A stretch of 64,000 nucleotides of DNA, taken from positions 17,711 to 81,710 of IMG/VR virus record IMGVR_UViG_3300022752_000033. The stretch is one strand, 5' to 3'. Both the position numbers and the translations under genes were made by a program. Under the pieces are notes generated by a model. It was not told where the DNA came from and did not search any database. It saw only the letters and a list, made by a program, of their open reading frames with translations. The DNA is from a virus (Duplodnaviria; Heunggongvirae; Uroviricota; Caudoviricetes). Shown here piece by piece: positions 16,102-53,160 of the stretch; positions within the stretch are counted from its first letter, which is position 1, and each line of letters opens with the position of its first letter.

Positions 16102-16629
16102 TTAAACTCTTTTAGAATGCGACACAATTTGATAAAAATCTTTTTTCCCATCACAATATTCTTTTACCAAACCTAACATATTTTTAAACATATATGCACC
16201 TTCATTCCTTTTTTCACATTTAGTGAATAATTCAATAAGAACTGATAAAAACTCAATTCCAAACTCACCATAAGAATTCAACATATGATACTTACCCATC
16301 ATATAGTGATTGTAATCCGGTTTAAACTTTTTTCTTTCCTCATCAGAATTGAATGGTGTAATTGTTTCATATAACTCACACCACTCCTCAATAAAGTTTT
16401 TAACCATATCTTTATTCCTTTCCGCCTTCATCAATAAATCAACTATCCAATGAGTATGTGATGGAGCCCGTAATCTTTTTCCGGGTGCAAGATATTTTAC
16501 AACAAAGTCAAGTTCAGGGTGTTTTCCTCTATTTCCTTGATATATGGCAACAATATTACCATCATCCAAAGACCAATGTTTCAGTGGTTGGTAATTTATG
16601 TTGTTTTTGTTGTAGCTGAGTTTTTTCAT
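16102..16629 (-). CDS. hypothetical protein
   Basis: ORF only. Overlaps the upstream gene by 68 nt unless it starts at an internal Met. Confidence 0.4.
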   Translation of the reverse strand: MKKLSYNKNNINYQPLKHWSLDDGNIVAIYQGNRGKHPELDFVVKYLAPGKRLRAPSHTHWIVDLLMKAERNKDMVKNFIEEWCELYETITPFNSDEERKKFKPDYNHYMMGKYHMLNSYGEFGIEFLSVLIELFTKCEKRNEGAYMFKNMLGLVKEYCDGKKDFYQIVSHSKRV

Positions 16630-17098
16630 AATAAGTTCTTACTTTTTGTCCTGTTTGTTGTTTATACCATCTACCTTCTTTATCCAACCAAACATATGGG
16701 TCTTGGGGGTTTTCACTCCAACCATATTGCGAATAAAAGTCCGGTTCTTTCTTTAATAAATTTGCTCTGTGAGATGAATGGAAATCTTCAAACCCAAACC
16801 AGTCAGGTAAAATGATTTCTTCATCAATCACTTCTTTTTTCATAGTGTTAGTAAAACCTCTACTAACCCACTCATCAATACAACAGTTATGGTAAAACTT
16901 TAGTGCCGGAATAAATTTTTTCCACATAACAGAACAAGGATGGTTTATCCATCCTTTGTAAGGTGTTCCGTCTAACTTTGGTCTTCCGGTGATTGCGTTG
17001 ATAATTTGAAACGCCTCGACTCGTTGTTTTCCGAGTCTTTTGTTGTCTAATACTTTTAACGATTGTCTAATGTCTGAATATGGTAAGAATGTTTGCAT
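16562..17098 (-). CDS. putative pyrimidine-dimer DNA glycosylase (DenV/Pyr_excise-like)
   Basis: N-terminal pattern LPYSDIRQSLKVLDNKRLGKQRVEAFQI...GWINHP resembles the LHPxYLD..GL...REA......GY.nHP signature I recall for this family; unverified. Confidence 0.35.
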   Translation of the reverse strand: MQTFLPYSDIRQSLKVLDNKRLGKQRVEAFQIINAITGRPKLDGTPYKGWINHPCSVMWKKFIPALKFYHNCCIDEWVSRGFTNTMKKEVIDEEIILPDWFGFEDFHSSHRANLLKKEPDFYSQYGWSENPQDPYVWLDKEGRWYKQQTGQKVRTYYEKTQLQQKQHKLPTTETLVFG

Positions 17099-17115: not shown

Positions 17116-17559
17116 TTATTCCAATTCACCAAATAAATAATCATAAGTTAGTGCATTATGATTAACTATATTTTTTTGAACTATTTTTAATATCTCTTCA
17201 GTTGGATTTGGCCCTGCAAGTCTTTTTCTACACTCAATAACATTATCCTCCATAAGTTCAACACCATAAGTTGTAGATAAAGCTTGTTCTAAAGAACATC
17301 CACTTCTTTCCATTTTTCTTATAATAACCTCAGATAAAAATTGCCCGTCTCCACAAGAATTATCTAAAAATATTTTTGTTTGGTCAGCAAATAATGTTGG
17401 GTCTTCTTCTTCAAGTTTATCAAGCATTTCTTGTACCAATGGTGTTGGTGTAAAAACTTCCGCAGTTTGCTTTATTCTAAGTTTATCACGGTCAACCCCT
17501 GACATATATTCTCTATTTCTTGAATGTTCTATATAGTTAATTAATTTTTGATTCAACAT
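17116..17559 (-). CDS. orphan N6-adenine methyltransferase N-terminal fragment (motifs X-I only)
   Basis: EVFTPTPLVQEMLDKL ... FLDNSCGDGQFL is a paralog of EVFTPSELVNQMLDKI ... FLDPCMGKGTFL in the upstream giant protein. No NPPF/Y catalytic motif. Overlaps the upstream stop by 23 nt. Confidence 0.5.
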   Translation of the reverse strand: MLNQKLINYIEHSRNREYMSGVDRDKLRIKQTAEVFTPTPLVQEMLDKLEEEDPTLFADQTKIFLDNSCGDGQFLSEVIIRKMERSGCSLEQALSTTYGVELMEDNVIECRKRLAGPNPTEEILKIVQKNIVNHNALTYDYLFGELE

Positions 17560-20500
17560 AATCTATTTCTTCTTTGCTTAATTCATAATAAGAATATATT
17601 TTTTCATCAGATGGTATTTCTGTGTAATCAATAACAGGGTGTATAAAATTAAAACCGTTCATCCCTCCACTTTTTAAACATAAATAATAAAATTTAGTTA
17701 ATTTTGATTCTTCAAAAACCCATATCATATTATTTGCAATCTCTTCATTTAAACATAAAATAATACCTGACATATGTTTTATTGCACCTACAGGGTCTGT
17801 TTCACCGTCATGATATTTAAAATTAGGTTTACCCGATTTTGTAAATGTAATTTTATTATCATTATAATATGTCGGCAAAATTGACGTATAAGAATAAAAT
17901 GTTTCATCTACCGTTCTTCTTATTTTATATTGATAAAAATTAGTATAAAAAGGTGATTGTGTGTCTGTTTGTTTTTTTAATTTATTGTGATTTACTCCTT
18001 CACTATGTAAAACATTTAATGATTTTTTATTTTTAATCTTATTAATAATTGATATTGATTCTTGTGATACTATATTGGGTAAGGTATCACTTGTTACATT
18101 TATTTTAACGCCTTCAAAAATAAAATCAGTGTCTATTTGTTTTTTCGTATTTTTTACAGCCCAAGTATAAAATGTCGACCCTTCCTTAAAATATTTTTTT
18201 ATGTCGGTATTGACCCAAACAGTTTGATTATCACTGAATATTCCACCAATATCTTTTGAACTATTTGGAAACTGAGGTGTGACAAAAGATAAAATTCCAT
18301 TTTCATTTAATTGTGAAAATCCTTTTTTCACAAAATACCTCCATAGTGCGGTTCTTCCTCCACTTTCTCCTTTACCACTTTGAAATGGTGGATTTCCAAG
18401 TATAACATCAAATTTCATTTTAATTTCTTCATTTAAAAAATCTTTACATTGAACGTTTATAAAACCACGTCGACGTAAATAGTTTATGTATTTTACTCGA
18501 GTATCATACCCGTAAACTCGAGATTTGGCGTCTTCTTCACTATACTTATAAATATAAACTAATCTATTAACTATCTCAATAAGAAACGTTCCTTTTCCCA
18601 TACAAGGGTCTAAGAATAAAGATTTAGGATTTCTCCATACCTCTTCCGGAATTTTATCAAGCATTTGATTAACCAATTCTGATGGTGTAAATACCTCCCC
18701 TTTTGATGGGTCAGATTTCCATTTTGAAAGCGAACTACCTATTTTATTTATAATCACTCCATTCTCTTCATTGTTATATGATGTAATAATTGTATTTAGT
18801 AATTTTTCTGAAACGGCACCCAACAAAATAACTTTCTTCACTATTTCACAATCCACTCCCACTTCAAAAACAACTTCTTCACAAAAACCCTTATCCCTAA
18901 TCATTTCAAGAGTTTCAATAATATTATTTGATTCACAATTATTTATCTCCGATATCTCGACAATATTTTCAACAATATTTGATAAAGATTCTTTTAATTT
19001 TTGACGTTCGTCTTCGGTAGCTTCTCCCTTATTTTTATCTTTTTTTGTTTTTTCTTTTTCGGTTCTGATAATTGTGCTTGAATCTACCCCATCAATCTTT
19101 TCTTTTTCAGTTTGATTATTAATTTCAATTCCTGTTAATACCCTAACTAATTCAGTATCATTCATTACCGAATCAACTTTAACAATATCCATTCCGATTC
19201 TAATTAATTCACTTGAATTAATTAACTTATTTGCATATTCATCAATAATGATGGGTTCCATTAAACCATTTTCATTAACAAATATATTAACTGAACGTAA
19301 TACTCGATTAATCCCGTCACTTAACTCATTAACATCCGTCTTTTCCGCCTCGTAAACAAGATACTCATCAATAGGGCTAACATCTTCACGATTAGGGTCT
19401 AATGATAAAGAAATGATATTACCACTAACTTTTTTAGACTCATCATAGGTATTACCCGGTGTTAAAACTCTCGATATTTTTTGAGCTACTGTTGAATATG
19501 ACCCTCTATCAAACATCAACATAACTGTATCAATTTCCGACACTGAAAAACTTCTAGATGCCATACTTTTACTAAGAAAAACAACTTTCTTACGTTCCCT
19601 TTTAGCACGTGCGACAACACCCTTAGCAAGTTCTTCGGCTTCTTTGTTGGACGTTTCATCACCATTTATTAACTCAACAATATATTGCGGACCTAATGTT
19701 TCTCCCAACAATTTGTGTAATTTTTTTTGTTCTTTCTTATCAGGTGTATTTGCAAAAATCATTGTAACATCTTTGGGACAAATTTCACTAGTATTTAAAT
19801 CAACCAAATATGTTAGTTTCCCATTATAAACCCCAAATAACGATTTAATTAAATCGGTTAATATCGGCTTTGACTTATCAACATCTGAAAGTAATTTAGT
19901 CCAATCAGTCCTGTATTTTGGTTCAACGTCATAAAATTTATCTATAGCACCCCCCAATGATAGTCTCATAAATTGAGGTATAACAATATCTTTTACTGAG
20001 TTTTTACTTTCCTCAATTGATTCCAAATTATCTTGTAGTGGATGTTCTCCGTATTTAACCATCAACATATCACTATAAGACCATCTTAAAATATTATCTC
20101 TAACATTTTTTAATGGATATATAACTTTTTCTATTGCAGTTCCTGTCATATAAACATTTAAACCACAATTAATAAAATCTATTTTATCTTGACTATTGTT
20201 CCTATGAGCTCCGAAGTCCGCCTCATCAATAATCGAAACTTTATCTTTTGATGGTAAATTCTTAATAATTTCTAATTTATCTTCATGCTCTCTCATATGT
20301 AAAGATGCAGGAATCAAAATTAATTTTTTACCATAATTCTCTCTAATTACATCATTTAAATTTTCATCTATTGACGCTAAAACCATGCAATCAGAATATT
20401 TTTTAAAGAAATAAAATTCTTTTTCAAAAGATGAATTTGATGTTAAAACATAACTAGGGATAACACATAACTTTATATTAAACTCTTCAAATAAAGTTTT

Positions 20501-20971
20501 TAACAAATCAATAACCCAAATAGTTTTTCCAAACCTAGGTGCCAACTCCAACGCAAAATCAATAAATTCATATTTTTTTTCTAATTCATATTGATATTTT
20601 TTCAAAAAATTATTTTTCATAACAGTTTGAAAAAACCTTGGAGTATATTCAACTCTTGTATCGTTTTTTTCTTTAGATATAATTTTACTTACACCTAAAA
20701 TTGCTTCTTCATCTGATTTAAATCCTTCAAACCATTCACTGCCTCCCCCTTGATTGACTTTTGCATACCCCATTAATCTCAACTGATAACGAATATAAAA
20801 ATCCGTCAAACCAGTTTCAATTTCCATTACTTTTTGAAGTTTTTCGGAGTTTCCTGTTTGTTGTCCTTTAATTCTATCAATTACTTCTTGCTCTGTTTGA
20901 CCGAATTTGTATCTCCCTTTTTGTCTGTCACTGTTCGTAGTGTAAATGTATATTTTGTTGTTCATTGTCAT
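17537..20971 (-). CDS. 1144-aa fusion: T5orf172/GIY-YIG-like domain + SF2 (DEAD-type) helicase + N6-adenine DNA methyltransferase
   Basis: aa 5-85 IYIY..GRYKFGQT...GSEWFEGF (T5orf172 signature). aa 135-510 APRFGKT (Walker A), SIIDEADFGAH (DEAD box), QKISRVLTPG (motif VI-like). aa 755-1120 VFTPSELV, FLDPCMGKGTFL (motif I), VILGNPPFQ (motif IV). Confidence 0.75.
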   Translation of the reverse strand: MTMNNKIYIYTTNSDRQKGRYKFGQTEQEVIDRIKGQQTGNSEKLQKVMEIETGLTDFYIRYQLRLMGYAKVNQGGGSEWFEGFKSDEEAILGVSKIISKEKNDTRVEYTPRFFQTVMKNNFLKKYQYELEKKYEFIDFALELAPRFGKTIWVIDLLKTLFEEFNIKLCVIPSYVLTSNSSFEKEFYFFKKYSDCMVLASIDENLNDVIRENYGKKLILIPASLHMREHEDKLEIIKNLPSKDKVSIIDEADFGAHRNNSQDKIDFINCGLNVYMTGTAIEKVIYPLKNVRDNILRWSYSDMLMVKYGEHPLQDNLESIEESKNSVKDIVIPQFMRLSLGGAIDKFYDVEPKYRTDWTKLLSDVDKSKPILTDLIKSLFGVYNGKLTYLVDLNTSEICPKDVTMIFANTPDKKEQKKLHKLLGETLGPQYIVELINGDETSNKEAEELAKGVVARAKRERKKVVFLSKSMASRSFSVSEIDTVMLMFDRGSYSTVAQKISRVLTPGNTYDESKKVSGNIISLSLDPNREDVSPIDEYLVYEAEKTDVNELSDGINRVLRSVNIFVNENGLMEPIIIDEYANKLINSSELIRIGMDIVKVDSVMNDTELVRVLTGIEINNQTEKEKIDGVDSSTIIRTEKEKTKKDKNKGEATEDERQKLKESLSNIVENIVEISEINNCESNNIIETLEMIRDKGFCEEVVFEVGVDCEIVKKVILLGAVSEKLLNTIITSYNNEENGVIINKIGSSLSKWKSDPSKGEVFTPSELVNQMLDKIPEEVWRNPKSLFLDPCMGKGTFLIEIVNRLVYIYKYSEEDAKSRVYGYDTRVKYINYLRRRGFINVQCKDFLNEEIKMKFDVILGNPPFQSGKGESGGRTALWRYFVKKGFSQLNENGILSFVTPQFPNSSKDIGGIFSDNQTVWVNTDIKKYFKEGSTFYTWAVKNTKKQIDTDFIFEGVKINVTSDTLPNIVSQESISIINKIKNKKSLNVLHSEGVNHNKLKKQTDTQSPFYTNFYQYKIRRTVDETFYSYTSILPTYYNDNKITFTKSGKPNFKYHDGETDPVGAIKHMSGIILCLNEEIANNMIWVFEESKLTKFYYLCLKSGGMNGFNFIHPVIDYTEIPSDEKIYSYYELSKEEIDYVESKIN

Positions 20972-21000: not shown

Positions 21001-21029
21001 AAAAAAAAAAGTCTCACTATTGTGAGACT
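21001..21029 (-). terminator. rho-independent terminator downstream of sbcC-like gene
   Basis: 8-bp hairpin AGTCTCAC-TATT-GTGAGACT followed on the minus strand by a run of 10 T. Confidence 0.6.
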
Positions 21030-23395
21030 CTACTAATATTCTCAACCTTCGTAATCTTCACCACATTATTCGCCCAATTATTAACAAGTGGGTTATGTGT
21101 GATTACAAAAATCTTTTCAAAATACTCCTTCATTTTATTGAAGAATTCTCCAACCATATCCAAGTTCTCATTACTAACCTTACCGAACACTTCGTCCCAA
21201 ACTATGATGTTTGGTTTTGGTAGAGAACAAACCTTACTTAACACAGCTCTTAAAGCCATACTAGCAATTGTCCTCTCATAACCCGAACCTGACGCCATCA
21301 GTTTCTCAATACCGGTGGAGTTGTCAATCATCATAAACTCAACCTCATTCTTTTCGTTGATTCTAATCTCCAAGTTGAAGTAACAAGAATCCATAAGAAG
21401 TCTTTGAAGTTCCTGATTGATTAAAGGCATCATCGTTTTCATAATCATCTTGGATATTCCGTTCTTCCCGAATACATCCATATAGATTTTATAAACTTTC
21501 TCCCTCTCAAACTCTTCGGCAATCATCGTGATAATCTCATTGTTCTTTTCAATTCTCTCCGTGTGATTTTTGATGTTGAGTTGGTTTGATACTTTAATTC
21601 TATCATAACTTCTCTTCTCATCAATGAGTTCATTTATTCTCATATTCGCTTTAATAAGTTGAGCTTCAACATCATTATTCTTTTTGATTTTCTCTTGAAC
21701 CTTTTCATATCTTCCCAACTTTTCTTCTAGTTGTTGTTTTTTGTTTACGGCACTTTCAAGACTAATCTCATACTTTTCCTTAATGAGTTTATTTTTCTCA
21801 TACTTATCAAACTCATTTTTGAGTTCAACAAATGATTTCTCTTCCAATTCAAGTTTTGTAACATCATCACTTAAACTGTTGTGTTTCTCCTTCCATCCAT
21901 CAAGTTCAGAGATTTTCTTTTTGGTGAGTTCCGCTTCCATCAATTTAATCCCGCAGTGTTGACATTGCATCCCATCACCATACTTGTTAACCATATCAGA
22001 TATATCTTCCACCTTGTCCCAAGCCCTGTTTTTTTCAATCTTGGTGTTGAGAAGTTTCTCCTTCACCTCATCGTGCTTGTCTTCGTGGTAATACTCCTTC
22101 GGTTCAACAACCTCAACGGATGCGATGTTTCTTTCAAGGTCTTTGATTGTGCTGTCCGCCCCTGAGATTTGCGTTTTAAGTGTATCCGGGTTTAAAATAA
22201 CCAACTCTTGGTCTAGGTCTGTATACTTGGAACCAATAAGTCCGTCCTTGTAATCCTGACCCTTCTTTAACCTGGTATCCACATCCACAATCTGCTTGTC
22301 AGCATTTTCAATCTGTCCTTGTAAAGTTTTAATCTCTTCCTTTGAGGTTTCGTTCTGTTGTCTCAACGACTCGGTGTTATAGACATTAGACATCATCCCC
22401 TTTGAGAACTCCGAATAGATTTCCTTTGCGGTTTCTTCCTTCTTCTTGATAAATTCAAGTCCAAGAAATCTTGATAAAACCTGTCCTCTTGCCGTTGGTT
22501 TCGCCTCAATTAAATCTTCAAGATTGGATGCGGTTGTTAGAATCGTCATAAGAAAATCATCCATATTCCCGATGGAATTTTTTATGAAGTTCTCTGTTTC
22601 TCTTCTCTGTTCTCCGGTGAAGTTTTGAAGTTGCCCGTCAGCAAGTTTTTTAAAGAAGTCAAGTTCACTCTTGACGTTCCATTCTCCCGCTTTATTCTTC
22701 TTTCTTTCAATACTTCTGGCGATGATATAATCCTCACCATCAATTGTAATCTCACCCTTAACACTTACTTTGTTGCTATCGGAGAATCTATTGAAAATCT
22801 CCTCGGCTTTCTGTGTCTTGGTGGTTGTATTGAAGAATAAGAACATAAGCAAATCCACACTAAGGACTGTCTTACCACCGAAATTAGGGGGGTCTGATTC
22901 AACTACGGTAATACCATTACACTTCTCAAAATCAATCACTTGGTTCTCACCATAAGATAAGAAGTTGCTAAATTCAATCTTTTTGATATACCACTTCTTG
23001 AATGGAGAAATCTCAACTTCATCCGTAATCATTCTTGATTCAACTGCTGAGTCAATATTCATAACACTATCAATCAAGTTTGCGTGTCCTTTGGCTTCAA
23101 CCAAACTTCTAACTAACTCCCTTTGATAGTTCTTATCCATAATGTTTACTGAAACATCTATGGTTTGCTGAACGTCATCCGTTGTTTTAACCTTTGTGAT
23201 TACGTTAATGTTGTTGGACGCATATTTCTTTTGGAAATATTGTTTCACCGATTTAATTCTCTCCTGTGTGAAGTTCTCGGGTGTGTCTTCCCAAATAACC
23301 TGAATGTAGGGGTTGTCTAATGTTGAGACATCTAATTTATGTGCCATAGTTTTTGTATTAAATTCCGGTTTTGGATTGAATAAATCCCATTTCAT
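21017..23395 (-). CDS. SbcC/Rad50-like recombination ATPase (T4 gp46-like)
   Basis: N-terminal P-loop (FGGKTVLS), long central coiled coil with CQHCG zinc-hook-like CxxC, C-terminal signature/Walker B/H-loop (SGSGYE, IIVWDEVFG, FVITHN). Confidence 0.8.
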   Translation of the reverse strand: MKWDLFNPKPEFNTKTMAHKLDVSTLDNPYIQVIWEDTPENFTQERIKSVKQYFQKKYASNNINVITKVKTTDDVQQTIDVSVNIMDKNYQRELVRSLVEAKGHANLIDSVMNIDSAVESRMITDEVEISPFKKWYIKKIEFSNFLSYGENQVIDFEKCNGITVVESDPPNFGGKTVLSVDLLMFLFFNTTTKTQKAEEIFNRFSDSNKVSVKGEITIDGEDYIIARSIERKKNKAGEWNVKSELDFFKKLADGQLQNFTGEQRRETENFIKNSIGNMDDFLMTILTTASNLEDLIEAKPTARGQVLSRFLGLEFIKKKEETAKEIYSEFSKGMMSNVYNTESLRQQNETSKEEIKTLQGQIENADKQIVDVDTRLKKGQDYKDGLIGSKYTDLDQELVILNPDTLKTQISGADSTIKDLERNIASVEVVEPKEYYHEDKHDEVKEKLLNTKIEKNRAWDKVEDISDMVNKYGDGMQCQHCGIKLMEAELTKKKISELDGWKEKHNSLSDDVTKLELEEKSFVELKNEFDKYEKNKLIKEKYEISLESAVNKKQQLEEKLGRYEKVQEKIKKNNDVEAQLIKANMRINELIDEKRSYDRIKVSNQLNIKNHTERIEKNNEIITMIAEEFEREKVYKIYMDVFGKNGISKMIMKTMMPLINQELQRLLMDSCYFNLEIRINEKNEVEFMMIDNSTGIEKLMASGSGYERTIASMALRAVLSKVCSLPKPNIIVWDEVFGKVSNENLDMVGEFFNKMKEYFEKIFVITHNPLVNNWANNVVKITKVENISRVSQ

Positions 23396-40021: not shown

Positions 40022-40483
40022 TTAACAAATTTCAAACGCATCGTGAACTACCTTTTTCAAAGATTTTGCATCTTGGTTATTACCAATCACCGCACCATTC
40101 TTCAAGGTAAATGCGTGTCCCCTAACAATGATGATATAAGTCCCGGTTGGATACTTTTTGATAAACTGATTAAGTGTAGTTCTTTTAACCTTATGAGTCA
40201 CTTTATCAATCGTTCTCAAGTCACCAATACCCTTGATTGACTTACCACTGAAAGTTTGACCGAGTGAATACATAGTCGCCAATTTACAAGAAACAAACAT
40301 TGTTCCTTTTCTATTTTGTCTATTAAACTTTTCTTTAACCCAAGTATGAGCTTCGTCATATGGGATTTCATAAGCGGATGCTACGGCTCTTACGAAACAA
40401 TCGTTAGTTTCGTTTTTAGCAATTACAGATTCTGTGTAGCCAATAATTCCTTCTGTTCGGTTGATGTATGGTAGTTGTTTCAT
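40022..40483 (-). CDS. putative papain-fold cysteine peptidase-like protein
   Basis: Candidate catalytic Cys (ETNDCFVRAVASAY) and His (VRGHAFTLKNG) about 100 aa apart, the order expected for NlpC/P60 or CHAP-type folds. Confidence 0.25.
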   Translation of the reverse strand: MKQLPYINRTEGIIGYTESVIAKNETNDCFVRAVASAYEIPYDEAHTWVKEKFNRQNRKGTMFVSCKLATMYSLGQTFSGKSIKGIGDLRTIDKVTHKVKRTTLNQFIKKYPTGTYIIIVRGHAFTLKNGAVIGNNQDAKSLKKVVHDAFEIC

Positions 40484-40525
40484 AATGTAAAGGTATATAA
40501 TAGTTGTGAGACTGCCAAATTTATT

Positions 40526-40867
40526 TTATAAACTTCTTGTCATCCAATTACATATGGCATTAGACATAGATACATTCTCCTTCGACATATCAACAATTTC
40601 ATCATATGTCTTAACCAAAACACTACCATATGAATCAATTTTGTTATTTGGATTGTTGGTATACACATCCACAATCCCGTTGTCCCCATAATACTCATTA
40701 CATAAGTCCTGAACGGAGAACTCATTTTTGTGGTGCATCCAACGAACGGAACCATAACACCTTAAACAAGTTACATATAAAAACCCATCGGAGGTGTCTA
40801 ATATCTCCTGATAAAGTTTGTCAGCATATTCCTTAGCGTGTTGATATTTTTGAATTAATTTTTCCAT
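40526..40867 (-). CDS. hypothetical protein
   Basis: ORF only. Confidence 0.4.
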   Translation of the reverse strand: MEKLIQKYQHAKEYADKLYQEILDTSDGFLYVTCLRCYGSVRWMHHKNEFSVQDLCNEYYGDNGIVDVYTNNPNNKIDSYGSVLVKTYDEIVDMSKENVSMSNAICNWMTRSL

Positions 40868-41118
40868 ACAACAAATTTATAAATTTTTTTTTAATATGCC
40901 AAATTATTTTTTTGATTCAAACGTATCGGTAAACACCGCAACGTATATAAATGCGATATATAGTAAATACAGAAAAATCATATTGGTAAAACCAATTAGA
41001 TTTTCCGGTTCACTATTAAGTGTAAGACCAATAATTAATAAGATTGTTGCGATGGTAGCAAGTAGTAACTTTTTCATATTTTTACATTTAGGGTGTAAAG
41101 ATAATGAAAAAAATTAAA

Positions 41119-41799
41119 TTACCAAATGTTTTTATTTTTCTTTAAATTATCTTCCGCCCATAATGGTTGAAGATTTGTGTAGTGACATAGATTATATATT
41201 TCTTCTTCTGTTTTTGCGGAAGATAATGGAATAATGTGGTCTATATGAATATATTCCCCTATTTTTTCCCAACACATTCCTTCTGTAAATTTTTTTTCAA
41301 TATGTTCTTTTAATTCTTGTGGGGTACACCCTATAATCTCAAAAGTTTTATTCCTTTTTGTTATATTTTTTGTCTTCATAAAGGAATATATCCTGCATCT
41401 AACAATATGTGAGAGTTTAAATAATGGGTCGGTTTTTTTTCTACTATTATGATATTCATTTGTTTTTTTTAAATTATTTTTTCTCCAAATTTTTAAATAC
41501 TCTCTATTTTTTTCTTTATTTTTTTCATTATATTCTTTTTTTCTTTCTTTAATTTTTTCATTATTTTCATAATAATATTTTTTTATATTGTGTTTTATTT
41601 TATCCATATTTTCATAATAATATTTTTTTCTATTATCCAAAACATCTTTTTTTTCTTTAACTTTTTCCCAATATTTTTTAGAATATTCTTTACGACACGA
41701 CCGACATTCGTATCTATGTCCGGTTTTTGATGATTTTTTAGGTTCAAACTCACAAATGTTTTTCTCTTCTTTACATTTATAACAAATCTTTTTTTCCAT
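41119..41799 (-). CDS. HNH endonuclease with N-terminal zinc finger (homing-endonuclease-like)
   Basis: C-terminal HIDHIIPLS ... NLCHYTNLQPLWAEDNLKK (HNH ββα-Me motif); N-terminal CYKCKEEKNIC ... ECRSCRKEY. Confidence 0.65.
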   Translation of the reverse strand: MEKKICYKCKEEKNICEFEPKKSSKTGHRYECRSCRKEYSKKYWEKVKEKKDVLDNRKKYYYENMDKIKHNIKKYYYENNEKIKERKKEYNEKNKEKNREYLKIWRKNNLKKTNEYHNSRKKTDPLFKLSHIVRCRIYSFMKTKNITKRNKTFEIIGCTPQELKEHIEKKFTEGMCWEKIGEYIHIDHIIPLSSAKTEEEIYNLCHYTNLQPLWAEDNLKKNKNIW

Positions 41800-41939
41800 T
41801 AAAATACTCTTTTAATAATTTATTTGTTAATGAGGAAAGATTAATATGGTTTTTTCTTATTATTTTTTCAATATCAGGGTCAATTGTGACCGACATTCTA
41901 ATTTTTTTTTCTTCTTCATCTATTTTCTTTCTTCCCATA
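41775..41939 (-). CDS. small ribbon-helix-helix (CopG/Arc-like) DNA-binding protein, 54 aa
   Basis: KKIRMSVTIDPDIEKIIRKNHINLSSLTNKLLKEY: β-strand followed by two helices. The stop overlaps the HNH gene start. Below the ORF-track cut-off. Confidence 0.35.
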
Positions 41940-41994
41940 TATATAAATATCTTGTTTTATGTAAAAGTATCATTTTTTAAGTAAAAAAATTTGA

Positions 41995-42591
41995 TTACCA
42001 AATTTTATTCATTTTCATATATGCTAGGGCACATACATAGCTATCACTCATATCAAAGTTTTCTTTTTTAAGTGTATTGTTTTTTGTGTAAAGCCAATTA
42101 ATTTGGGGTTCTCTCTTGGCAACTTGTTCCCACACCAACATTTTTTTATCTATATCTTTTGGATATCCGCCAAATAAAACAAATTTACCTTTATCGTTTT
42201 CCTTCACAAAAAACGGAAATGCGAATTTTCTTGAATTGTAAGTCGTTATCAGTTCCGGAATAACCCCTAATACATCATAGACCTCTTTACAAATAAGAGT
42301 ATTATAACGCATGAGAGTTCCTACCGTGTAAACATTATTTGACCCTAAAAGGGGTTCTTCAATAACCACAGTAGTTATTCCAAGACCAACATAAGACTTA
42401 ATTTTTTCTCTAAAAACTTCAGCCTTTAACATTAGTTCGTGAATCTTATTTTCCGTTTTAACTTTCGGTGAGATGTGAGTTAATTCAAGTAAGTTTTTTG
42501 AATCAATGTCAAATAAACAAATACCTATACATTTTGTACTCACGTCTAACCCAAGTATTTTAGGTGAATCTTCCTTTATATCTTTCTTCAT
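41995..42591 (-). CDS. RuvC-like Holliday-junction resolvase
   Basis: N-terminal ILGLDVSTKCIGICLFD (RuvC/RNase H-fold first catalytic Asp motif); about 200 aa. Confidence 0.5.
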   Translation of the reverse strand: MKKDIKEDSPKILGLDVSTKCIGICLFDIDSKNLLELTHISPKVKTENKIHELMLKAEVFREKIKSYVGLGITTVVIEEPLLGSNNVYTVGTLMRYNTLICKEVYDVLGVIPELITTYNSRKFAFPFFVKENDKGKFVLFGGYPKDIDKKMLVWEQVAKREPQINWLYTKNNTLKKENFDMSDSYVCALAYMKMNKIW

Positions 42592-42618
42592 ATTATTTTA
42601 AATAATCATACAGAATTA

Positions 42619-44796
42619 TTAGAAGTCAAGTTTTACCACTATTTGTTGTATACCTTGTCTCAATTCCGGTGATTGCATTTTTGATAAAACTAATAATTCT
42701 TTCTCCTCATTAAATAAACCCACCTCAGTAAAATATGAAGTCGTTCCAGAAGTCCATGTTGGATTTGTTGTGTTAGTAAATTGATTTCTACCTAACGTAA
42801 CCAAAAATTTCATTTCATATATCGTTGCGGTTATGTCAGTTTCAATATTACCATAAAAATAATACTCATCCCCAAAATTTAAAATGTCCGGTGAATTATT
42901 TGGGGTTAAATCAATATAGGTTGATAAGTCATATGTTGTCGCCGCGTTATAATCCGCGTCGGTTATTTGGAATGTTGTGCCCGTAATACCACTCATGGTT
43001 AAAAATCCATTAACCGTTGAAGCACTTAACTTACTTGTTACGTCGATTTGTTTCCATGCGGTTGGGTCAGGTCTTAAATTATCATTTCTCTTTTGACAAA
43101 TTATTTTCATTCTATTTGTAGAGAATCCTGATAATCCACCCTGATTCATATATGGGAATTCATCACCAAACCTTATTGCAACATTTTGTGATGTTAAAGT
43201 ACATCCCGTATCAGGCCCAATAATTGATGTATAATAATTACAATGTAACGAATTCGTATATCCCGTTGGGTCTAATCTATACGTTACCCACATTGTTTGG
43301 TTTGACCCTGTTAACACTCCAACTCCGGCTTCATTTCCCGTACAAATATTGGGAGTTATAAGTGATAATTGTGGTGCAGGTAAAGTCCAATTTCTATTTG
43401 ACTTATATGATAATGCCGCAACCAACTCTTCATCATCAATAACGATTATTTGCTGGTCGGGAAATACTTTACCAACACGATTAACATTACCGTTTGAATC
43501 CGGAATATTATCGTATAATTGGAAATATCTAATCCCGGGGTCGTTCATATCTAAATTAACTTTAGATTTGATATAGTATGGTACACATAAATTATTATAA
43601 ACCGTAGAATCAATATAAAAATCTGCACCTATTGTTGTTCCCGTTGATTTATGCCACATAACAGTTGGCATACTTATTTTAAAATGTGTCGCCTGACCTG
43701 TGATGTTTGTTGGATTCTGTGGGTCAAATGGTATTGTTGCAAATTTTTCACCATAAACAAAATCTATATCTTGATTCGTATAATGAATAATTGCAATTGC
43801 TTTTTGGTCTTCAGGTTTAACGGTTATTTTATCGTCAAATGAGTTGTAATAAAAAACACCACCAGTATCAGTTTGTCCCGCAGATTCGTTATACCCCAAA
43901 TATTCTTTCGTTCCAATATATCCAACGGAGCCAAAATTTCTGTAATCTTCATACGTAGATGAGAATAGTCCCGCAGGATTCTCAGTCCAAGGAATATTCA
44001 TATTCCAAACCAAAGTATTTTCTCTATTAATAACATCACAAGGTGATTCAAAATTTAATGTATCCGTTTGCCAATATGGTTCCGGAGTAATTGTATCATA
44101 CAATTCAGTCATTCCTGACGGATATATATAAGCTCTACCAAACTTATTACTTAACGTTAGTGCCGTATAGTTTGGAACTTTCCTATCTAAAGTAACATTA
44201 TAGTTCGCCCCGTTTTGAGTAACACTTTGAATTTTATAAGTTAAAACCGGAACGTTTCCAATACTACTACAATCACCAACTCCATCATAATAAATTGTAA
44301 TAAAGTGGTTAACTTGCGGAGTTCCCGTAGACGTACTACAAAAATTATTAAAAATTGTTATTGTTGTTTGTCCCGATAAAGTTGACATATCAACTCTATA
44401 GTTTGACGTTACGGTATATGCAGAACTATTTTGAACGGTTGGATTTGTTGTTCCCGTATTAAAAAATCCTCTTGCAGTTGCAGTATTATACACTTCGTCA
44501 GCACCACTATTTTCATATGGTATACCATACGTATTTCCTTCCGTACCATCCAAATAATATGGATATTTTATATTTTGTTTGTTATTACCTTCAGGAGTAT
44601 CATTTTGGGCGTTAAACGCCGGCATCAAAATATTATTATTTGTTTGAGTATAATTGGTTACCGCAGAATACGTAACCTCACTATCTCCAACTTGGAAGTA
44701 TTTAATGTTAAAATTTCCTTGTGATAATCTTCTTCTACCAACATCCGTCATTCTCGTATTGATAAGTGCGGAAGTATTTTTTATAATGTATGACAT
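42619..44796 (-). CDS. virion structural protein (725 aa)
   Basis: Large Asn/Thr/Tyr-rich β-rich protein heading the structural block; no enzymatic motif. Confidence 0.45.
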   Translation of the reverse strand: MSYIIKNTSALINTRMTDVGRRRLSQGNFNIKYFQVGDSEVTYSAVTNYTQTNNNILMPAFNAQNDTPEGNNKQNIKYPYYLDGTEGNTYGIPYENSGADEVYNTATARGFFNTGTTNPTVQNSSAYTVTSNYRVDMSTLSGQTTITIFNNFCSTSTGTPQVNHFITIYYDGVGDCSSIGNVPVLTYKIQSVTQNGANYNVTLDRKVPNYTALTLSNKFGRAYIYPSGMTELYDTITPEPYWQTDTLNFESPCDVINRENTLVWNMNIPWTENPAGLFSSTYEDYRNFGSVGYIGTKEYLGYNESAGQTDTGGVFYYNSFDDKITVKPEDQKAIAIIHYTNQDIDFVYGEKFATIPFDPQNPTNITGQATHFKISMPTVMWHKSTGTTIGADFYIDSTVYNNLCVPYYIKSKVNLDMNDPGIRYFQLYDNIPDSNGNVNRVGKVFPDQQIIVIDDEELVAALSYKSNRNWTLPAPQLSLITPNICTGNEAGVGVLTGSNQTMWVTYRLDPTGYTNSLHCNYYTSIIGPDTGCTLTSQNVAIRFGDEFPYMNQGGLSGFSTNRMKIICQKRNDNLRPDPTAWKQIDVTSKLSASTVNGFLTMSGITGTTFQITDADYNAATTYDLSTYIDLTPNNSPDILNFGDEYYFYGNIETDITATIYEMKFLVTLGRNQFTNTTNPTWTSGTTSYFTEVGLFNEEKELLVLSKMQSPELRQGIQQIVVKLDF

Positions 44797-48276: not shown

Positions 48277-51200
48277 TTATGAGAATGATAATGTTGCTTG
48301 ATAAAATGAATTAACGTGGAATAATTTGTCAAGGGTTGTAAACACTAAACGTAAGGTATGGACAGTATTCGCAGGTAAAAGATATGGTGGTGGAATAATT
48401 ATTACAGGAACAATTGGGCCATCATTACATCCTAACCCTCCTCCAGGAGCCTGTCCATTTGAAACTTCTGCACCATCAAGAAAAAAGCTCATTCTATCAA
48501 ATCCGGTCGCCTGTAATTCACCTTGACCAAACCAAGTAAGATTTAAATTTGTATTTACAGGACCTACCGTTATTGTTGCAGTTGCAGTCGCTTCTTGCGT
48601 TATATCACAACCTCCCACCTGACAATTTAGAGATGGTGCAACATTAAATCTAATCGTTAAATTATCGGGTGATATGACCCACCCCGCCGATTGACAACCT
48701 GTTACACCTTCCGTATTTTTTGTTGTTGACCATACTAAACCTGACACAGGTAACGGTACTCTTGTAGGTGTAGGTGTTTTAGTTTTAGTTGGAGTCGCCG
48801 ACATAGTTGGTGTTTGACTAGCAGTTCTAGTAGGTGTGTTTGAAGCCGTTGGTGTTGGTGTTGAAGTTAATGTTGGCACCGAACAACATCCATTGAGTTC
48901 CGTGATTAAAATATCGCCAGAAATCGAATCCACATTCAAAGAACAAATTGTCGCACTACCTGATTTAGGAAACTCATCTGTCACTGTATCACCATAACAA
49001 TTAGTATAAGAATATCGCCCTAGATAAGGACCTGTTAAAAGATAAGAACAACATCTACCAGCACAATATTTTACATCACAAACTAAAGTTGGTGTTGGTG
49101 TTGCGGTTTTTGTCGGTGTTTGTGTTGCGGTTTTTGTCGGTGTTTGTGTTGTGGTTTTTGTTGGAGTTTGTGATGTTGTTCTCGTTGGAGTCGAAGTATT
49201 AGTCGGTGTTTGTGTTGGTGTCTGAGTTTGAGTTTGAGTTCTTGTTGCGGTATTAGTCGGTGTTTGAGTCAGCGTTTGTGCTCTAGTTGCGGTGTTAGTT
49301 GGAGTTTGCGTCGTAGTTTTTGTTGGTGTCTGTGTCGGTGTTTGAGTCCTTGTCGCAGTATTAGTTGGTGTTTGCGTCGATGTTTGTGTTGGTGTTTGAG
49401 TCCTTGTCGCAGTGTTTGTTGGTGTTTGCGTCGATGTTTTAGTTGGTGTCTGTGTTGGAGTTGCGGTATTTGTTGGTGTTTTAGTTGCAGTATTTGTTGG
49501 TGTCTGTGTTGGTGTTTGAGTTCTTGTTGCTGTATTAGTCGGTGTTTGCGTTGCAGTATTGGTAGGTGTTTTAGTAGTTGTTGCAGTATTTGTTGGTGTT
49601 TGTGTTGGAGTTTGAGTCCTTGTTGCGGTATTAGTCGGCGTTTGTGTTGTAGTATTTGTTGGTGTTTGTGTCGGTGTTTGGGTTCTTGTCGCAGTGTTTG
49701 TCGGCGTTTGTGTCGGTGTAGAAGTATTGGTTGCAGTATTAGTAGGTGTCTGTGTAGGTGTTTGAGTTCTTGTTGCAGTATTAGTCGCAGTTCTTGTTGC
49801 CGTATTAGTTGGTGTTTGAGTCGTAGTATTAGTAGGTGTTTGTGTTGGTGTTTTTGTCATTGTTGGTGTCTGAGTTTGTGTTACAGTTGGTGTTGGCGTT
49901 TTAGTAGGACAATTATATATATTAGTCGTACAATCAGGACATCCGGCCGATGGCGAAAGAATCGAACCGTTTCCATAAGTAATACTAGGAGGTGTCATAA
50001 ACTTATACGTCGCACAACCTACAAACCCATCCGTTCTAATATAGTAAGTTGCATCGACAACTGGTGTACCAAGCGTTAAGTCAACATTAAACCTTGAACC
50101 ATCACAACACGATTCCCACCCAAGAGTTGATATTGTTGGAGTTACAGTTGGTGTTGCTGTATTGGTTGGAGTTTGAGTTTTAGTTGCAGTATTCGTCGGT
50201 GTTTGAGTATTTGTAGGTGTTTTAGTTGGAGTTTGAGTTTTGGTCGCAGTATTTGTTGGTGTTTGTGTTGGTGTTTCAGTTCTTGTTGCAGTATTAGTCG
50301 CCGTATTAGTTGCGGTATTGGTTGGAGTTTGTGTTGCAGTGTTAGTCGGTGTTTGTGTAGGTGTTTGAGTTCTTGTTGCGGTACTAGTTGGAGTCTGTGT
50401 TGCAGTACTAGTTGGTGTTTTAGTCGCAGTATTTGTTGGGGTCTGTGTTGTGGTATTAGTTTGTGTTTGAGTTTGAGTTGTAGTATTAGTTGGTGTTTGA
50501 GTTTGAGTTGTAGTATTAGTTGGTGTTTGAGTTGTAGTATTAGTTGGTGTCTGTGTTGAAGTTTTTGTTGGTGTTTGAGTTCTTGTCGCAGTATTTGTCG
50601 GTGTTTGAGTCGCAGTTTGAGTCGGTGTTTGAGTCGCAGTTTGAGTCGGTGTTTGAGTCGCAGTTTGAGTTGGGGTATTGGTAGGTGTTTGGGTTGGCGT
50701 TTTTGTGTTTGTTGCAGTATTTGTGGGTGTTTGAGTTGGTGTCTGTGTTGGAGTTTGAGTTCTTGTCGCAGTATTGGTTGCAGTATTTGTAGGTGTTTGA
50801 GTTCTTGTCGCAGTATTAGTTGGTGTAGGTGTTTGAGTTGGCGTTTTAGTTGGTGTCTGTGTAGGACACGGAAAATCTAATTTACAAGCATCACAATTTC
50901 CAAAATCAACAACACCTATCGCACCATTTGTATATGTCAATCCTGGCGGTGTCATAATTTTATATGTCGCACAACCGGTGAACTGTGTTGATGTTACATA
51001 ATACACTCTACCTTCAACAAGAGTTGTTGGTATAGTTAATATTAAAGAGAACCGAGTACCATCACAACAAGCCTCCCAATTAAGACTTGAAATGGTAGGT
51101 GTTACAGTTGGTGTTGACGTATTGGTTGGAGTATTGGTTGGTGTTTTAGTATTAGTTGGTGTCTGCGTATTTGTCGTAGTATTGGTTGGAGTTTGAGTTG

Positions 51201-53160
51201 AGGTTTTAGTCGTTGTTGGAGTATTAGTTGAGGTATTAGTAGGTGTCTGTGTTGCAGTATTTGTAGGGGTATTTGTTGCAGTATTTGTCGGCGTTTGTGT
51301 TGCGGTTTTAGTTGGTGTTTGAGTTTTAGTAGCCGTATTTGTAGGTGTTTGAGTTGTCGTATTTGTCGGCGTATTTGTAGGGGTTTGAGTTGGTGTTTGG
51401 GTAGACGTATTCGTTGCCGTATTAGTTGGTGTTTGAGTTTGCGTTGTAGTATTAGTTGGAGTTTGAGTAGGTGTTTGTGTTGCGGTTTTAGTTGGTGTTT
51501 GAGTACTAGTTGGTGTTTTAGTTGCAGTATTTGTTGCGGTATTAGTTGGTGTTTGTGTAGGTGTTTGAGTTCCAGTTTTGGTTGGTGTTTGAGTTTGCGT
51601 TGGTGTTTGTGTTGCGGTTTTAGTCGGTGTTTGAGTTTGTGTAGGAGTTTGTGTTCCGGTTTTAGTCGGTGTTTGAGTTAATATTTCCCCATTTGTTGGT
51701 GTGTTTGTAGGTGTTGTAGTATTAGTTGGGGTTTGAGTTTGTGTTGCAGTATTAGTTGGGGTTTGAGTAGGAGTTTGAGTACTAGTTTTTGTTGGTGTCT
51801 GTGTGTTTGTTGGTGTCTTAGTTTGCGTAGATGTTTTGGTCGGCGTTTGAGTTCCGGTTTTAGTTGGAGTGTTTGTTGGTGTCTTAGTTTGAGTTGCAGT
51901 ATTAGTTGGGGTCTGTGTTGGTGTCTTAGTTTGCGTAGATGTTTTGGTCGGCGTTTGAGTACTTGTCGCAGTATTAGTCGGGGTCTGTGCCGGTGTTGAG
52001 GTATTTGTTGGAGTTTGTGTTGGAGTTGAAGTATTGGTTGGTGTTTGAGTTGGAGTCTCCGTATTTGTTGGTGTTGGTGTTGGGCTTTCCGGTATACCAT
52101 ACCTAAAATCCCAAACATAGTAAATATTTGTATTTGGCCCAGCATAATCAAACGGAACATTCGCACAGAAATAATCAACACCATTTATATTTTGTTGATA
52201 AACAGTTGTACTACTCAATGTCGGTATTAAAGTTTGAAATTGAGCCTTTGTATATTCAACCGTACTACTATAATACCACATCGTATTACCATACGATAAA
52301 TTAAATGGTAGATTAGCAATGCCAATAAGATTTTTAGGTATCTGTAATCTAACCGTATCACCATAATTCGGTAAATTAAATTGAGTGTTTGAATTAGAAT
52401 AATAACCAACTTTCCATCCATCCAAACTATTTGGAGTATTATTAAAACTATACCCAAGACCTGAGTTGGTAAGACTACTAAAAGATAAATCGTTAATATA
52501 TTTACCAACATCCGGTAAATCATTTAAAACACTTCCGTATACTTTAGGGGGTACTAGATATGTTGCAACTCCGTTTAGGTCACAATTCGGTAAATTTCTA
52601 CCAATACTACATACCGTAGTTGCAGTATAATCACCATAATAATCTATTACAGTGACCGGATAACTACCCGAAGATACATTAAATAATATTTTTTCTCTAA
52701 CTCCATTCGCCCACAAAACATTATATGGACTTGTTCCACCCGTAATATTAATCCTAATTATACCACCAGTATTTGTAAAAACATCTACCTCTTGTAAAAT
52801 CTCACAACTAATACCCATTGGATAATTTGTATAAATTTCACACGTATTATAATCATACGTGACAATTTTACCTGTTAAAGTAGATGGAGTTGTTGGATTG
52901 GTTGGTGTTGGGGTATTTGATGGGGTTAACGTTGGTGTTGGGGTATTTGATGGGGTTAACGTTGGTGTTGGTGTTGGGGTGGATGTGGGGCACTGTGTTA
53001 TGACTTCATTGTCATTTAAAATAGTTACGTTTTGATATACACTATTTAAATCAAAAGTAATTATATATGGCAAGGCGGTATCACCATAATTAAAATTACC
53101 GCAACAATCCGTATAAACGTAATTGTTAAGAGTAATACCTGAAACACAATATACCGCCAT
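48277..53160 (-). CDS. giant modular Thr/Pro-rich surface/fiber protein (1627 aa), paralog of 53218..60909
   Basis: A 330-aa N-terminal domain conserved with the neighbour (MAV(Y/S)CVSGITLN..YTDCCGN). Multiple Cys-rich modules (CCDG(T/S)RF...GCATYK(I/F)MTPP; CD(V/E)(K/I)YC...CCSY) separated by hundreds of residues of TPTQTPTNTAT linker. Confidence 0.7.
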   Translation of the reverse strand: MAVYCVSGITLNNYVYTDCCGNFNYGDTALPYIITFDLNSVYQNVTILNDNEVITQCPTSTPTPTPTLTPSNTPTPTLTPSNTPTPTNPTTPSTLTGKIVTYDYNTCEIYTNYPMGISCEILQEVDVFTNTGGIIRINITGGTSPYNVLWANGVREKILFNVSSGSYPVTVIDYYGDYTATTVCSIGRNLPNCDLNGVATYLVPPKVYGSVLNDLPDVGKYINDLSFSSLTNSGLGYSFNNTPNSLDGWKVGYYSNSNTQFNLPNYGDTVRLQIPKNLIGIANLPFNLSYGNTMWYYSSTVEYTKAQFQTLIPTLSSTTVYQQNINGVDYFCANVPFDYAGPNTNIYYVWDFRYGIPESPTPTPTNTETPTQTPTNTSTPTQTPTNTSTPAQTPTNTATSTQTPTKTSTQTKTPTQTPTNTATQTKTPTNTPTKTGTQTPTKTSTQTKTPTNTQTPTKTSTQTPTQTPTNTATQTQTPTNTTTPTNTPTNGEILTQTPTKTGTQTPTQTQTPTKTATQTPTQTQTPTKTGTQTPTQTPTNTATNTATKTPTSTQTPTKTATQTPTQTPTNTTTQTQTPTNTATNTSTQTPTQTPTNTPTNTTTQTPTNTATKTQTPTKTATQTPTNTATNTPTNTATQTPTNTSTNTPTTTKTSTQTPTNTTTNTQTPTNTKTPTNTPTNTSTPTVTPTISSLNWEACCDGTRFSLILTIPTTLVEGRVYYVTSTQFTGCATYKIMTPPGLTYTNGAIGVVDFGNCDACKLDFPCPTQTPTKTPTQTPTPTNTATRTQTPTNTATNTATRTQTPTQTPTQTPTNTATNTKTPTQTPTNTPTQTATQTPTQTATQTPTQTATQTPTNTATRTQTPTKTSTQTPTNTTTQTPTNTTTQTQTPTNTTTQTQTQTNTTTQTPTNTATKTPTSTATQTPTSTATRTQTPTQTPTNTATQTPTNTATNTATNTATRTETPTQTPTNTATKTQTPTKTPTNTQTPTNTATKTQTPTNTATPTVTPTISTLGWESCCDGSRFNVDLTLGTPVVDATYYIRTDGFVGCATYKFMTPPSITYGNGSILSPSAGCPDCTTNIYNCPTKTPTPTVTQTQTPTMTKTPTQTPTNTTTQTPTNTATRTATNTATRTQTPTQTPTNTATNTSTPTQTPTNTATRTQTPTQTPTNTTTQTPTNTATRTQTPTQTPTNTATTTKTPTNTATQTPTNTATRTQTPTQTPTNTATKTPTNTATPTQTPTKTSTQTPTNTATRTQTPTQTSTQTPTNTATRTQTPTQTPTKTTTQTPTNTATRAQTLTQTPTNTATRTQTQTQTPTQTPTNTSTPTRTTSQTPTKTTTQTPTKTATQTPTKTATPTPTLVCDVKYCAGRCCSYLLTGPYLGRYSYTNCYGDTVTDEFPKSGSATICSLNVDSISGDILITELNGCCSVPTLTSTPTPTASNTPTRTASQTPTMSATPTKTKTPTPTRVPLPVSGLVWSTTKNTEGVTGCQSAGWVISPDNLTIRFNVAPSLNCQVGGCDITQEATATATITVGPVNTNLNLTWFGQGELQATGFDRMSFFLDGAEVSNGQAPGGGLGCNDGPIVPVIIIPPPYLLPANTVHTLRLVFTTLDKLFHVNSFYQATLSFS
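48780..52090 (-). repeat. degenerate short-period coding tandem repeats (ACN-CCN-ACN-[CAA/AAT/AAA]) encoding T-P-T-Q/N/K linkers
   Basis: Hundreds of 6-18-nt near-repeats; on the plus strand seen as ggtgtttgagttggtgtttgtgt. Confidence 0.8.

Follow-up and report, generated by a model that had tools for sequence, protein, structure and literature searches.

Locus and domain architecture

The window analysed here is a 64,000-nucleotide stretch of IMG/VR virus record IMGVR_UViG_3300022752_000033 (positions 17,711 to 81,710 of that record), from a large, uncultured freshwater phage with a G+C content of about 31%. Its minus strand carries, at 17537..20971, an intact open reading frame (ORF) with an ATG start, whose 1144-amino-acid (aa) product joins a T5orf172/GIY-YIG-like domain, a superfamily 2 (SF2) helicase motor and an N6-adenine methyltransferase in a single chain. 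The features of the locus, in window coordinates, are:

17537..20971, minus strand: the whole ORF including its stop codon, encoding the T5orf172 domain, SF2 motor, helical domain, methyltransferase and recognition domain; defined as an ORF and matched by an exact copy, P0001
20672..20971, minus strand: aa 1-100, T5orf172/GIY-YIG-like nuclease domain with IYIY, YKFGQT, R33 and E79-W80, assigned from family profiles, invariant residues and a structural model
19127..20659, minus strand: aa 105-615, SF2 motor of two RecA domains, with Walker A (APRFGKT), motif II (DEAD), motif III (TGT) and motif VI (QKISRVLTPG)
19019..19123, minus strand: aa 617-651, Lys/Glu-rich segment with a predicted local distance difference test (pLDDT) score below 50 in the model
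18752..19018, minus strand: aa 652-740, helical bundle, which in unfused helicase proteins forms the C-terminal domain, from alignment and model
18710..18751, minus strand: aa 741-754, fusion junction, standing in place of the stop and start codons of unfused relatives
18383..18709, minus strand: aa 755-863, conserved N-terminal half of a gamma-class N6-adenine methyltransferase, with motifs X (VFTP), I (FLDPCMGKGTFL), II, III and IV (NPPF)
17540..18382, minus strand: aa 864-1144, swappable cassette made up of the C-terminal half of the catalytic domain and the target-recognition domain
17116..17559, minus strand: third gene of the cassette, a 147-aa "half-methyltransferase" overlapping the end of the large ORF by 23 nt
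21008..21031, minus strand: terminator-like hairpin (10-bp stem, then a T-run) where the upstream SbcC-like gene ends, with the ATG 37 nt further on

The initial annotation of the window had described a single 1144-aa ORF here and had named a frameshift as what could undo it. A 100% identical copy (P0001) on a 180-kb metagenomic contig, together with fused relatives of 1131-1141 aa from independent samples (51-94% identical), excludes a frameshift or assembly artefact; the gene is real and lies on the minus strand. The motifs quoted in that annotation all occur in the protein at the relative positions given, and its proposed order of T5orf172/GIY-YIG, SF2 helicase and N6-adenine methyltransferase is supported by profiles, AlphaFold models and family comparison. 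The two halves of the protein were modelled separately with AlphaFold2 (AF2), and the models thus carry no inter-domain geometry.

T5orf172 (PF10544) was detected at the N-terminus of 23 of 55 homologs, with a best E-value of 4.4e-10, and MUG113 (PF13455), a member of the same clan, in 12 of the 55; the 1144-aa protein by itself reaches MUG113 at E 0.016, below the Pfam cut-off. In one fused relative (P0447; 1121 aa, 28% identical), PF10544 scores 30.2 bits against a cut-off of 20, and T5orf172, ResIII and Eco57I all exceed their Pfam cut-offs within one chain. Residues Y8, K22, G24, R33, E79 and W80 are invariant in family alignment A5, and an equivalent pattern recurs in groups 2 and 3 of the family. 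Judged by sequence, these residues appear to be the GIY tyrosine, the YIG strand, and the catalytic arginine and glutamate of GIY-YIG nucleases. The model of aa 1-100 has the order strand-strand-helix-strand-helix-strand-helix, which is compatible with the GIY-YIG fold, and a search of the N-domain profile against PDB sequences returned nothing significant. The T5orf172 protein Gp88 of phage ICP1, in which the same arginine and glutamate are kept, is an experimentally shown nuclease (PMC8263062). One homolog considered as a case of nuclease-motif loss, P0092, was rejected as such, its N-domain being of the group-2 type with KYG, RIR and GEVH retained.

The motor is likewise recognized through the family, with Helicase_C in 41 and ResIII in 26 of the 55 members, the 1144-aa protein itself remaining below the Pfam cut-offs; across the family, Walker A, DEAD and motifs III and VI do not vary. 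In a fold search with the motor model, EcoR124I HsdR (16.4), LlaBIII (14.7) and EcoP15I Res (14.6) were recovered amid chromatin remodellers and XPD-type helicases, and the predicted motor fold is nearest to those of type I HsdR and SauUSI. The poorly modelled Lys/Glu-rich segment that follows is probably a flexible linker, and the helical bundle beyond it may act as a coupler to the methyltransferase or as its docking site.

The methyltransferase exceeds its Pfam cut-off in the protein itself (Eco57I, PF07669; 39 bits against 25.3). A profile of aa 741-1144 and homologs, compared with the PDB, matched CamA (1e-20), BseCI, BsaXI, TaqI and PglX/BrxX of bacteriophage exclusion (BREX) systems. 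The AF2 model of this half (pLDDT 90) was matched by Foldseek to CamA (1e-17) and TaqI (6e-12), and its resemblance to CamA, BseCI and TaqI extends across both the catalytic and the C-terminal domains. Because of these profile and model matches, we assign it as a monomeric, gamma-class N6-adenine DNA methyltransferase of the CamA/TaqI-like type with its own C-terminal recognition domain. A scan of the 1144-aa protein against NCBIfam gave no match.

Repeated fusion and an exchanged recognition cassette

Most homologs, at 55-71% identity, are nuclease-helicases of about 735 aa that stop where the methyltransferase starts. On these unfused contigs an Eco57I-family methyltransferase of about 395-418 aa begins 2-16 nt downstream, and a protein of about 140 aa usually comes next. 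Hidden Markov models built for each part of the cassette and run on 53 related loci recovered the set of helicase, methyltransferase and small protein down to helicase identities of 25-28%; the cultured cyanophage S-CAM7 also has the cassette, with its helicase split into two genes (at about 40319-44144 of its record; CC030809_00053 to 00056). In the helicase-region tree, fused forms stand at three or more separate places, each beside unfused relatives: the clade of the 1144-aa protein, P0011 (nearest to the unfused P0087, 83%) and P0037 (nearest to the unfused P0080, 74%). A fourth case comes from P0094 and P0095, which are partial proteins. The tree thus points to independent origins of the fusion, at least three to four in number. 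Repeated fusion of these neighbouring genes argues that the nuclease-helicase and the methyltransferase work as one complex.

Further fused chains of 1100-1176 aa were found at 26-29% identity to the 1144-aa protein, and others are in UniProt among proteins of viruses, one of them a giant virus. The single chain reported in the initial annotation stands, but it is a lineage-specific fusion with many similar chains in public databases. Those chains are unannotated, and our literature searches found no description of this phage family. The best matches of the aa 1-740 model in BFVD included long proteins annotated just as adenine methyltransferases, from Hokovirus HKV1 (A0A1V0SG34, 1324 aa) and an uncultured member of Caudovirales (A0A6J5KT33, 1138 aa), and helicase-methyltransferase chains may thus also exist in giant viruses. 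Alignment A2, which combined fused proteins with helicase-only and methyltransferase-only ones, was discarded because it placed the methyltransferases wrongly on the helicase.

Several related loci differ in arrangement. In L009 (1-2935; 400-kb contig) and L010 (1947-3127; 185-kb contig), the cassette lies just downstream of nucleotide-sugar enzymes. Both have cupin/mannose-6-P isomerase-like and cytidylyltransferase-like genes, and L009 alone has an epimerase and a thymidylate-synthase-like gene; these surroundings may represent a DNA hypermodification island. L009 also carries two tandem Eco57I-family methyltransferases behind one helicase. On the viral contig L053 (4995-8326), the helicase gene is broken by about 1.8 kb containing short methyltransferase-like fragments, which may stem from an insertion, from an intein or intron, or from a rearrangement.

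The last 281 residues of the protein vary between close relatives. Proteins P0002-P0004 are 96-100% identical to it over aa 1-850 and about 12-28% identical beyond. The flanking DNA of two relatives is, by segment, 95.8-97.9% (L011) and 95.5-96.2% (L012) identical to that of this phage, the identity running from several kb upstream to 18385/18380 and resuming at 17539, with 0.84 kb between that cannot be aligned. The left break falls at the codon after NPPF (aa 860-863), and the right break at the gene end, which is also the start of the small gene. At least four unrelated types of these 281 residues occur in near-identical phages (that of this phage, of P0002, of P0003 and of P0004/5/6), and the type of this phage is also present in the unfused methyltransferases P0122 and P0123 (76% identity). 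This phage and its near-identical relatives are held in the freshwater samples JGI 3300009180, ENA ERZ28593329 and Logan ERR4869829. The cassette is flanked by the N-terminal half of the methyltransferase upstream and the paralogous small gene downstream, which share a 57-nt stretch at 77% identity, and we propose that these flanks may serve as homology arms. The Type ISP enzymes LlaGI and LlaBIII, more than 95% identical outside the recognition domain, show the same pattern (PMC3553950).

The small gene had been noted as an orphan methyltransferase fragment, a description that does not hold: it belongs to a conserved family of about 140 aa, is under purifying selection (a ratio of nonsynonymous to synonymous substitution rates, dN/dS, of about 0.1-0.2) and is the best-conserved member of the cassette. 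In L041, for example, it is 75% identical, against 28% for the helicase and 35% for the methyltransferase N-terminal half. Its 147-aa product has motifs X (VFTP), I (FLDNSCGDGQFL), II and III only and ends just before the NPPY/F position; it keeps the residues that bind S-adenosylmethionine (SAM) and is without those that hold the target adenine. Public data contain more than 5000 clusters of this family at 90% identity, about 140-150 aa long and without a Pfam family; other such genes lie at 13390-13809 in L004 and 3624-4097 in L041. We suggest that the half-methyltransferase may be a SAM-binding subunit of the module.

Predicted activity and competing explanations

These comparisons show that the protein has three domains with conserved catalytic residues, that motor and methyltransferase are coupled and that specificity has diversified. 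The reading we prefer, held tentatively and at somewhat less than an even chance, is that the phage encodes a Type ISP-like restriction-modification enzyme, dependent on ATP and equipped with a GIY-YIG nuclease, by which it marks its own DNA and attacks DNA that is unmarked. In the proposed mechanism, the methyltransferase and recognition module would read a short asymmetric site and methylate its adenine on phage DNA using SAM. At unmethylated sites, in host or competing-phage DNA, the recognition module would license the motor to translocate on double-stranded DNA, whereupon the GIY-YIG domain would nick or cut. The half-methyltransferase would be part of this module, its gene serving also as the conserved downstream flank of the recognition cassette, and the phage would gain a module that is at once self-marking and non-self-degrading. 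Phage T4 follows an analogous logic, combining modified DNA of its own with nucleases against host DNA. Among the roles raised in the initial annotation (anti-restriction, self-marking and a weapon against competitors), the evidence favours self-marking with a nuclease, short of proof.

Several observations weigh against restriction-modification. The activity is a prediction from sequence and models. The T5orf172 and helicase calls both draw on the family, the protein's own Pfam scores being below the cut-offs, and INO80, XPD and other SF2 motors score nearly as high as restriction motors in the fold search. A profile of aa 1-740 compared with PDB sequences, LlaBIII (4xqk) included, gave no match at E-values up to 1; none of the Type ISP, type I and type III enzymes with solved structures is thus significantly similar in sequence, the match to them being confined to the motor fold. 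PADLOC returned only type II methyltransferase models (MTase_II) and no defence helicase or nuclease model. The proposal leaves the role of the half-methyltransferase unexplained, and the bacterial YeeABC cluster of Bacillus subtilis, which has the same domain types, displayed neither restriction nor anti-phage activity (PMC9973331).

The distribution of the family is a further point of this kind, a near-exclusive occurrence in phages being unusual for restriction-modification enzymes. In IMG/VR the family has 39 loci, the longest of their contigs being 322 kb. A scan of 185,579 bacterial and archaeal species (one genome each) gave a single hit, on a 10-kb contig of a metagenome-assembled genome, by a pattern-based search that would miss distant relatives; a plasmid scan with the family profile gave no match. 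The family thus appears to be mostly confined to phages, almost exclusively in phage sequence, within the reach of that pattern-based genome scan.

A divergent branch bears on what the motor is for. At ten loci with a T5orf172-helicase about 27% identical to ours, no methyltransferase follows the helicase; a protein of about 290 aa and of unknown type stands there instead, followed at nine of the ten by a protein of about 216 aa from the Mom family (PF25680, E 4.5e-19). These Mom-linked loci are L024, L026, L027 (4884-8645), L029, L030, L033, L035, L037 and L052. Mom is the adenine-N6 modifier of phage Mu and a classic anti-restriction modifier. With either a methyltransferase or a Mom-like gene present, an adenine-modifying enzyme lies behind the helicase in every locus with visible downstream genes, and the branch may constitute a motor-linked, Mom-type DNA modification module. 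An hhalign comparison of the group-3 "protein X" with the methyltransferase alignment gave a probability of 3.7%; the line-up of KYDtVLIDI with KFDVIVGNPPY is suggestive and is not evidence.

The pairing of this helicase type with a Mom-like modifier also weighs against restriction, in that the motor might serve modification as such. The main alternative is accordingly motor-assisted self-methylation, purely as anti-restriction: the motor would carry the methyltransferase along DNA or open the duplex, marking hundreds of genome copies quickly, and T5orf172 would be a DNA-binding or nick-loading domain, not a restriction nuclease. We regard this as possible, if doubtful. Protection from host restriction is the usual purpose of phage methyltransferases, and in addition to the Mom-linked branch, the tandem methyltransferases of L009 are as expected for cover against several host enzymes, the nucleotide-sugar genes beside the cassette in L009 and L010 and the thymidylate-synthase-like gene of L009 suggest a modification island, and recognition swaps could track the restriction systems of different hosts. 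A precedent for a T5orf172-type protein domesticated for a non-cleaving role is indicated by the endonuclease encoded by PLE, an element that resembles phage-inducible chromosomal islands (bioRxiv 10.1101/2020.11.28.402263). Self-methylation alone nevertheless leaves unexplained the invariant nuclease-type tyrosine, arginine and glutamate, as well as the presence of a restriction-type motor that follows an N-terminal nuclease, an arrangement shared with HsdR and SauUSI; ordinary phage methyltransferases and the Mom protein of Mu need no motor.

The neighbourhood invites a different explanation. Upstream lies an SbcC/Rad50-like ATPase (21017-23395, minus strand; phrog_77, E 8e-49), at most 25% identical to proteins of cultured phages, and the strong terminator that had been placed before the 1144-aa gene corresponds to the terminator-like hairpin and T-run between the SbcC-like gene and the ATG. 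Downstream, the 147-aa methyltransferase-like ORF is followed by a DenV-type pyrimidine-dimer glycosylase, the DenV-like gene already recognized there, so that the neighbours comprise SbcC-like, half-methyltransferase, DenV, DUF6576 and sigma factor genes. The protein could be a recombination or repair helicase-nuclease (for example for junction or fork processing) merely beside a methyltransferase, or a helicase whose gene took in a homing-endonuclease domain. The SbcC-like and DenV genes on either side agree with such a role, a recombination function has been proposed for T5orf172 proteins of jumbo phages (PMC7824862), and T5orf172 homing endonucleases are common in phages (PMC10448857). We consider this very unlikely, as repeated in-frame fusion with a methyltransferase would be hard to explain and the link to an adenine modifier persists where the other neighbours differ completely. 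From branch to branch of the family the nuclease-like domain keeps its N-terminal position, hence is not a recent insertion, and insertion of a homing endonuclease was rejected.

The same neighbourhood counts against a role like that of DarB of phage P1, a phage protein that combines methyltransferase and helicase domains. On that account the virion would carry the protein, which would enter the cell with the DNA and protect the incoming genome in cis against type I restriction; the protein shares with DarB a large size, phage origin and both domain types. We judge this highly improbable: the gene's neighbours serve DNA metabolism (SbcC-like, DenV, sigma factor) and are not of the head or dar type, the two genes are commonly found unfused, the domains run in the opposite order to those of DarB and the chain is half as long. 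A tblastn search of 50,697 phage records gave just 4 weak partial matches, none to P1, and megablast of the gene against the same records gave none; on this evidence the phage appears very distant from cultured phages. PHROG scans of ten large ORFs of the window did not place it in any phage group.

Other observations on the window concern genes apart from the module. The SbcC-like neighbour also matches the PADLOC Lamassu LmuB model (E 5e-14), for which common membership of the SMC/Rad50 family is probably the sole cause. Just downstream of DenV, a 175-aa ORF (16102-16629, minus strand) reflects a presence/absence polymorphism of one small gene: the stretch 16141-16630 is present in L011 and absent from the otherwise about 95-96% identical L012. 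Two giant ORFs on the minus strand (48277-53160 and 53218-60909; 1627 and 2563 aa) match PHROGs without an assigned function (phrog_17273, 3649, 22899 and 15511) repeatedly within their length and show a strong local anomaly of composition, with G+C reaching 0.41 and a GC skew that reaches +0.6 (about -0.2 elsewhere).

Extending the restriction-modification reading to the whole family, we hypothesize a phage-exclusive class of ATP-dependent self/non-self modules, in which a GIY-YIG nuclease-translocase is combined with interchangeable adenine-N6 modifiers (an N6-methyladenine methyltransferase or a Mom-like protein) and would destroy unmodified host or rival-phage DNA while the phage genome is marked. 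Specificity would be re-assorted by exchange of the cassette between NPPF and the half-methyltransferase gene, the latter acting as both subunit and downstream homology arm. This generalization is speculative and, taken as a whole, unlikely. Given an active nuclease arm, many large phages of fresh and marine waters, cultured cyanophages like S-CAM7 among them, would carry a phage-borne restriction-modification weapon or host-DNA shredder. The near-identical proteins that differ in recognition cassette offer a ready-made natural experiment on how specificity is encoded, and this set of proteins could supply programmable motor-coupled methyltransferases or nucleases. That one helicase family is associated with adenine modifiers of two unrelated kinds, a methyltransferase and a Mom-like protein, suggests a general, unstudied principle of motor-assisted DNA modification, and even if the module acts in modification only, it would explain methylation patterns in environmental phage genomes.

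Comparison with known systems

Type I and related restriction enzymes share parts of this architecture. HsdR and SauUSI have the same layout of N-terminal nuclease, motor and helical domain; their nuclease folds, PD-(D/E)XK in HsdR and phospholipase D (PLD) in SauUSI, differ from the domain here. The phage protein also lacks an HsdS subunit, and SauUSI is modification-dependent and without a methyltransferase partner. A type III Res/Mod arrangement was rejected, since the methyltransferase is of a different class and the nuclease lies at the opposite end.

The comparison with DarB and PglX drawn in the initial annotation is borne out in part. With PglX (8c45 and 9ewz; E 3e-7 to 1e-5) the phage protein has its Eco57I-family methyltransferase domain in common. 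BREX membership was rejected, as only this domain matches and the neighbours are not BREX genes; BREX partner families were absent from the Pfam hits recorded for neighbouring genes in L011 and L012. Homology to DarB was rejected for want of a P1 match in the tblastn search of phage records, and because the methyltransferase of DarB is N-terminal to its helicase, the reverse of the order here.

In the bacterial cluster YeeA(DnmA)-YeeB-YeeC, conserved synteny functionally links proteins with these three types of domain, and the cluster has been proposed as a type of restriction-modification system (PMC2731913, PMC9973331; also PMC4738411). YeeA is, like the methyltransferase here, an Eco57I/MmeI-family enzyme with its own recognition domain. 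The cluster consists, however, of three proteins in the order methyltransferase, helicase and nuclease, with a long, MmeI-like YeeA, whereas in the phage family the nuclease is fused to the helicase N-terminus, the methyltransferase is CamA/TaqI-like and of about 400 aa, and the gene order is reversed; YeeB and YeeC were compared with the phage family by description, not by sequence.

Type ISP enzymes such as LlaGI and LlaBIII, also named in the initial annotation, are the best architectural match, with nuclease, SF2 motor, coupler, gamma-class methyltransferase and recognition domain in a single chain; what is absent is sequence homology and the Mrr-type nuclease. Their nuclease is of the Mrr/PD-(D/E)XK fold in place of T5orf172/GIY-YIG, and the protein here is about 430 residues shorter, without significant sequence similarity, phage-encoded, usually present as two genes and accompanied by a conserved half-methyltransferase gene. 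Relative to known systems, the module differs in its nuclease fold, in its viral host, in usually existing as two genes and in the additional half-methyltransferase gene. Should the nuclease arm prove active, the protein would represent a compact Type ISP-like enzyme with a different nuclease fold, used by viruses rather than cells. As far as sequence comparison indicates, the 1144-aa protein is not a member of the Type ISP, type I, type III, DarB or BREX families; in predicted function it is most like Type ISP, and in domain content most like YeeABC.

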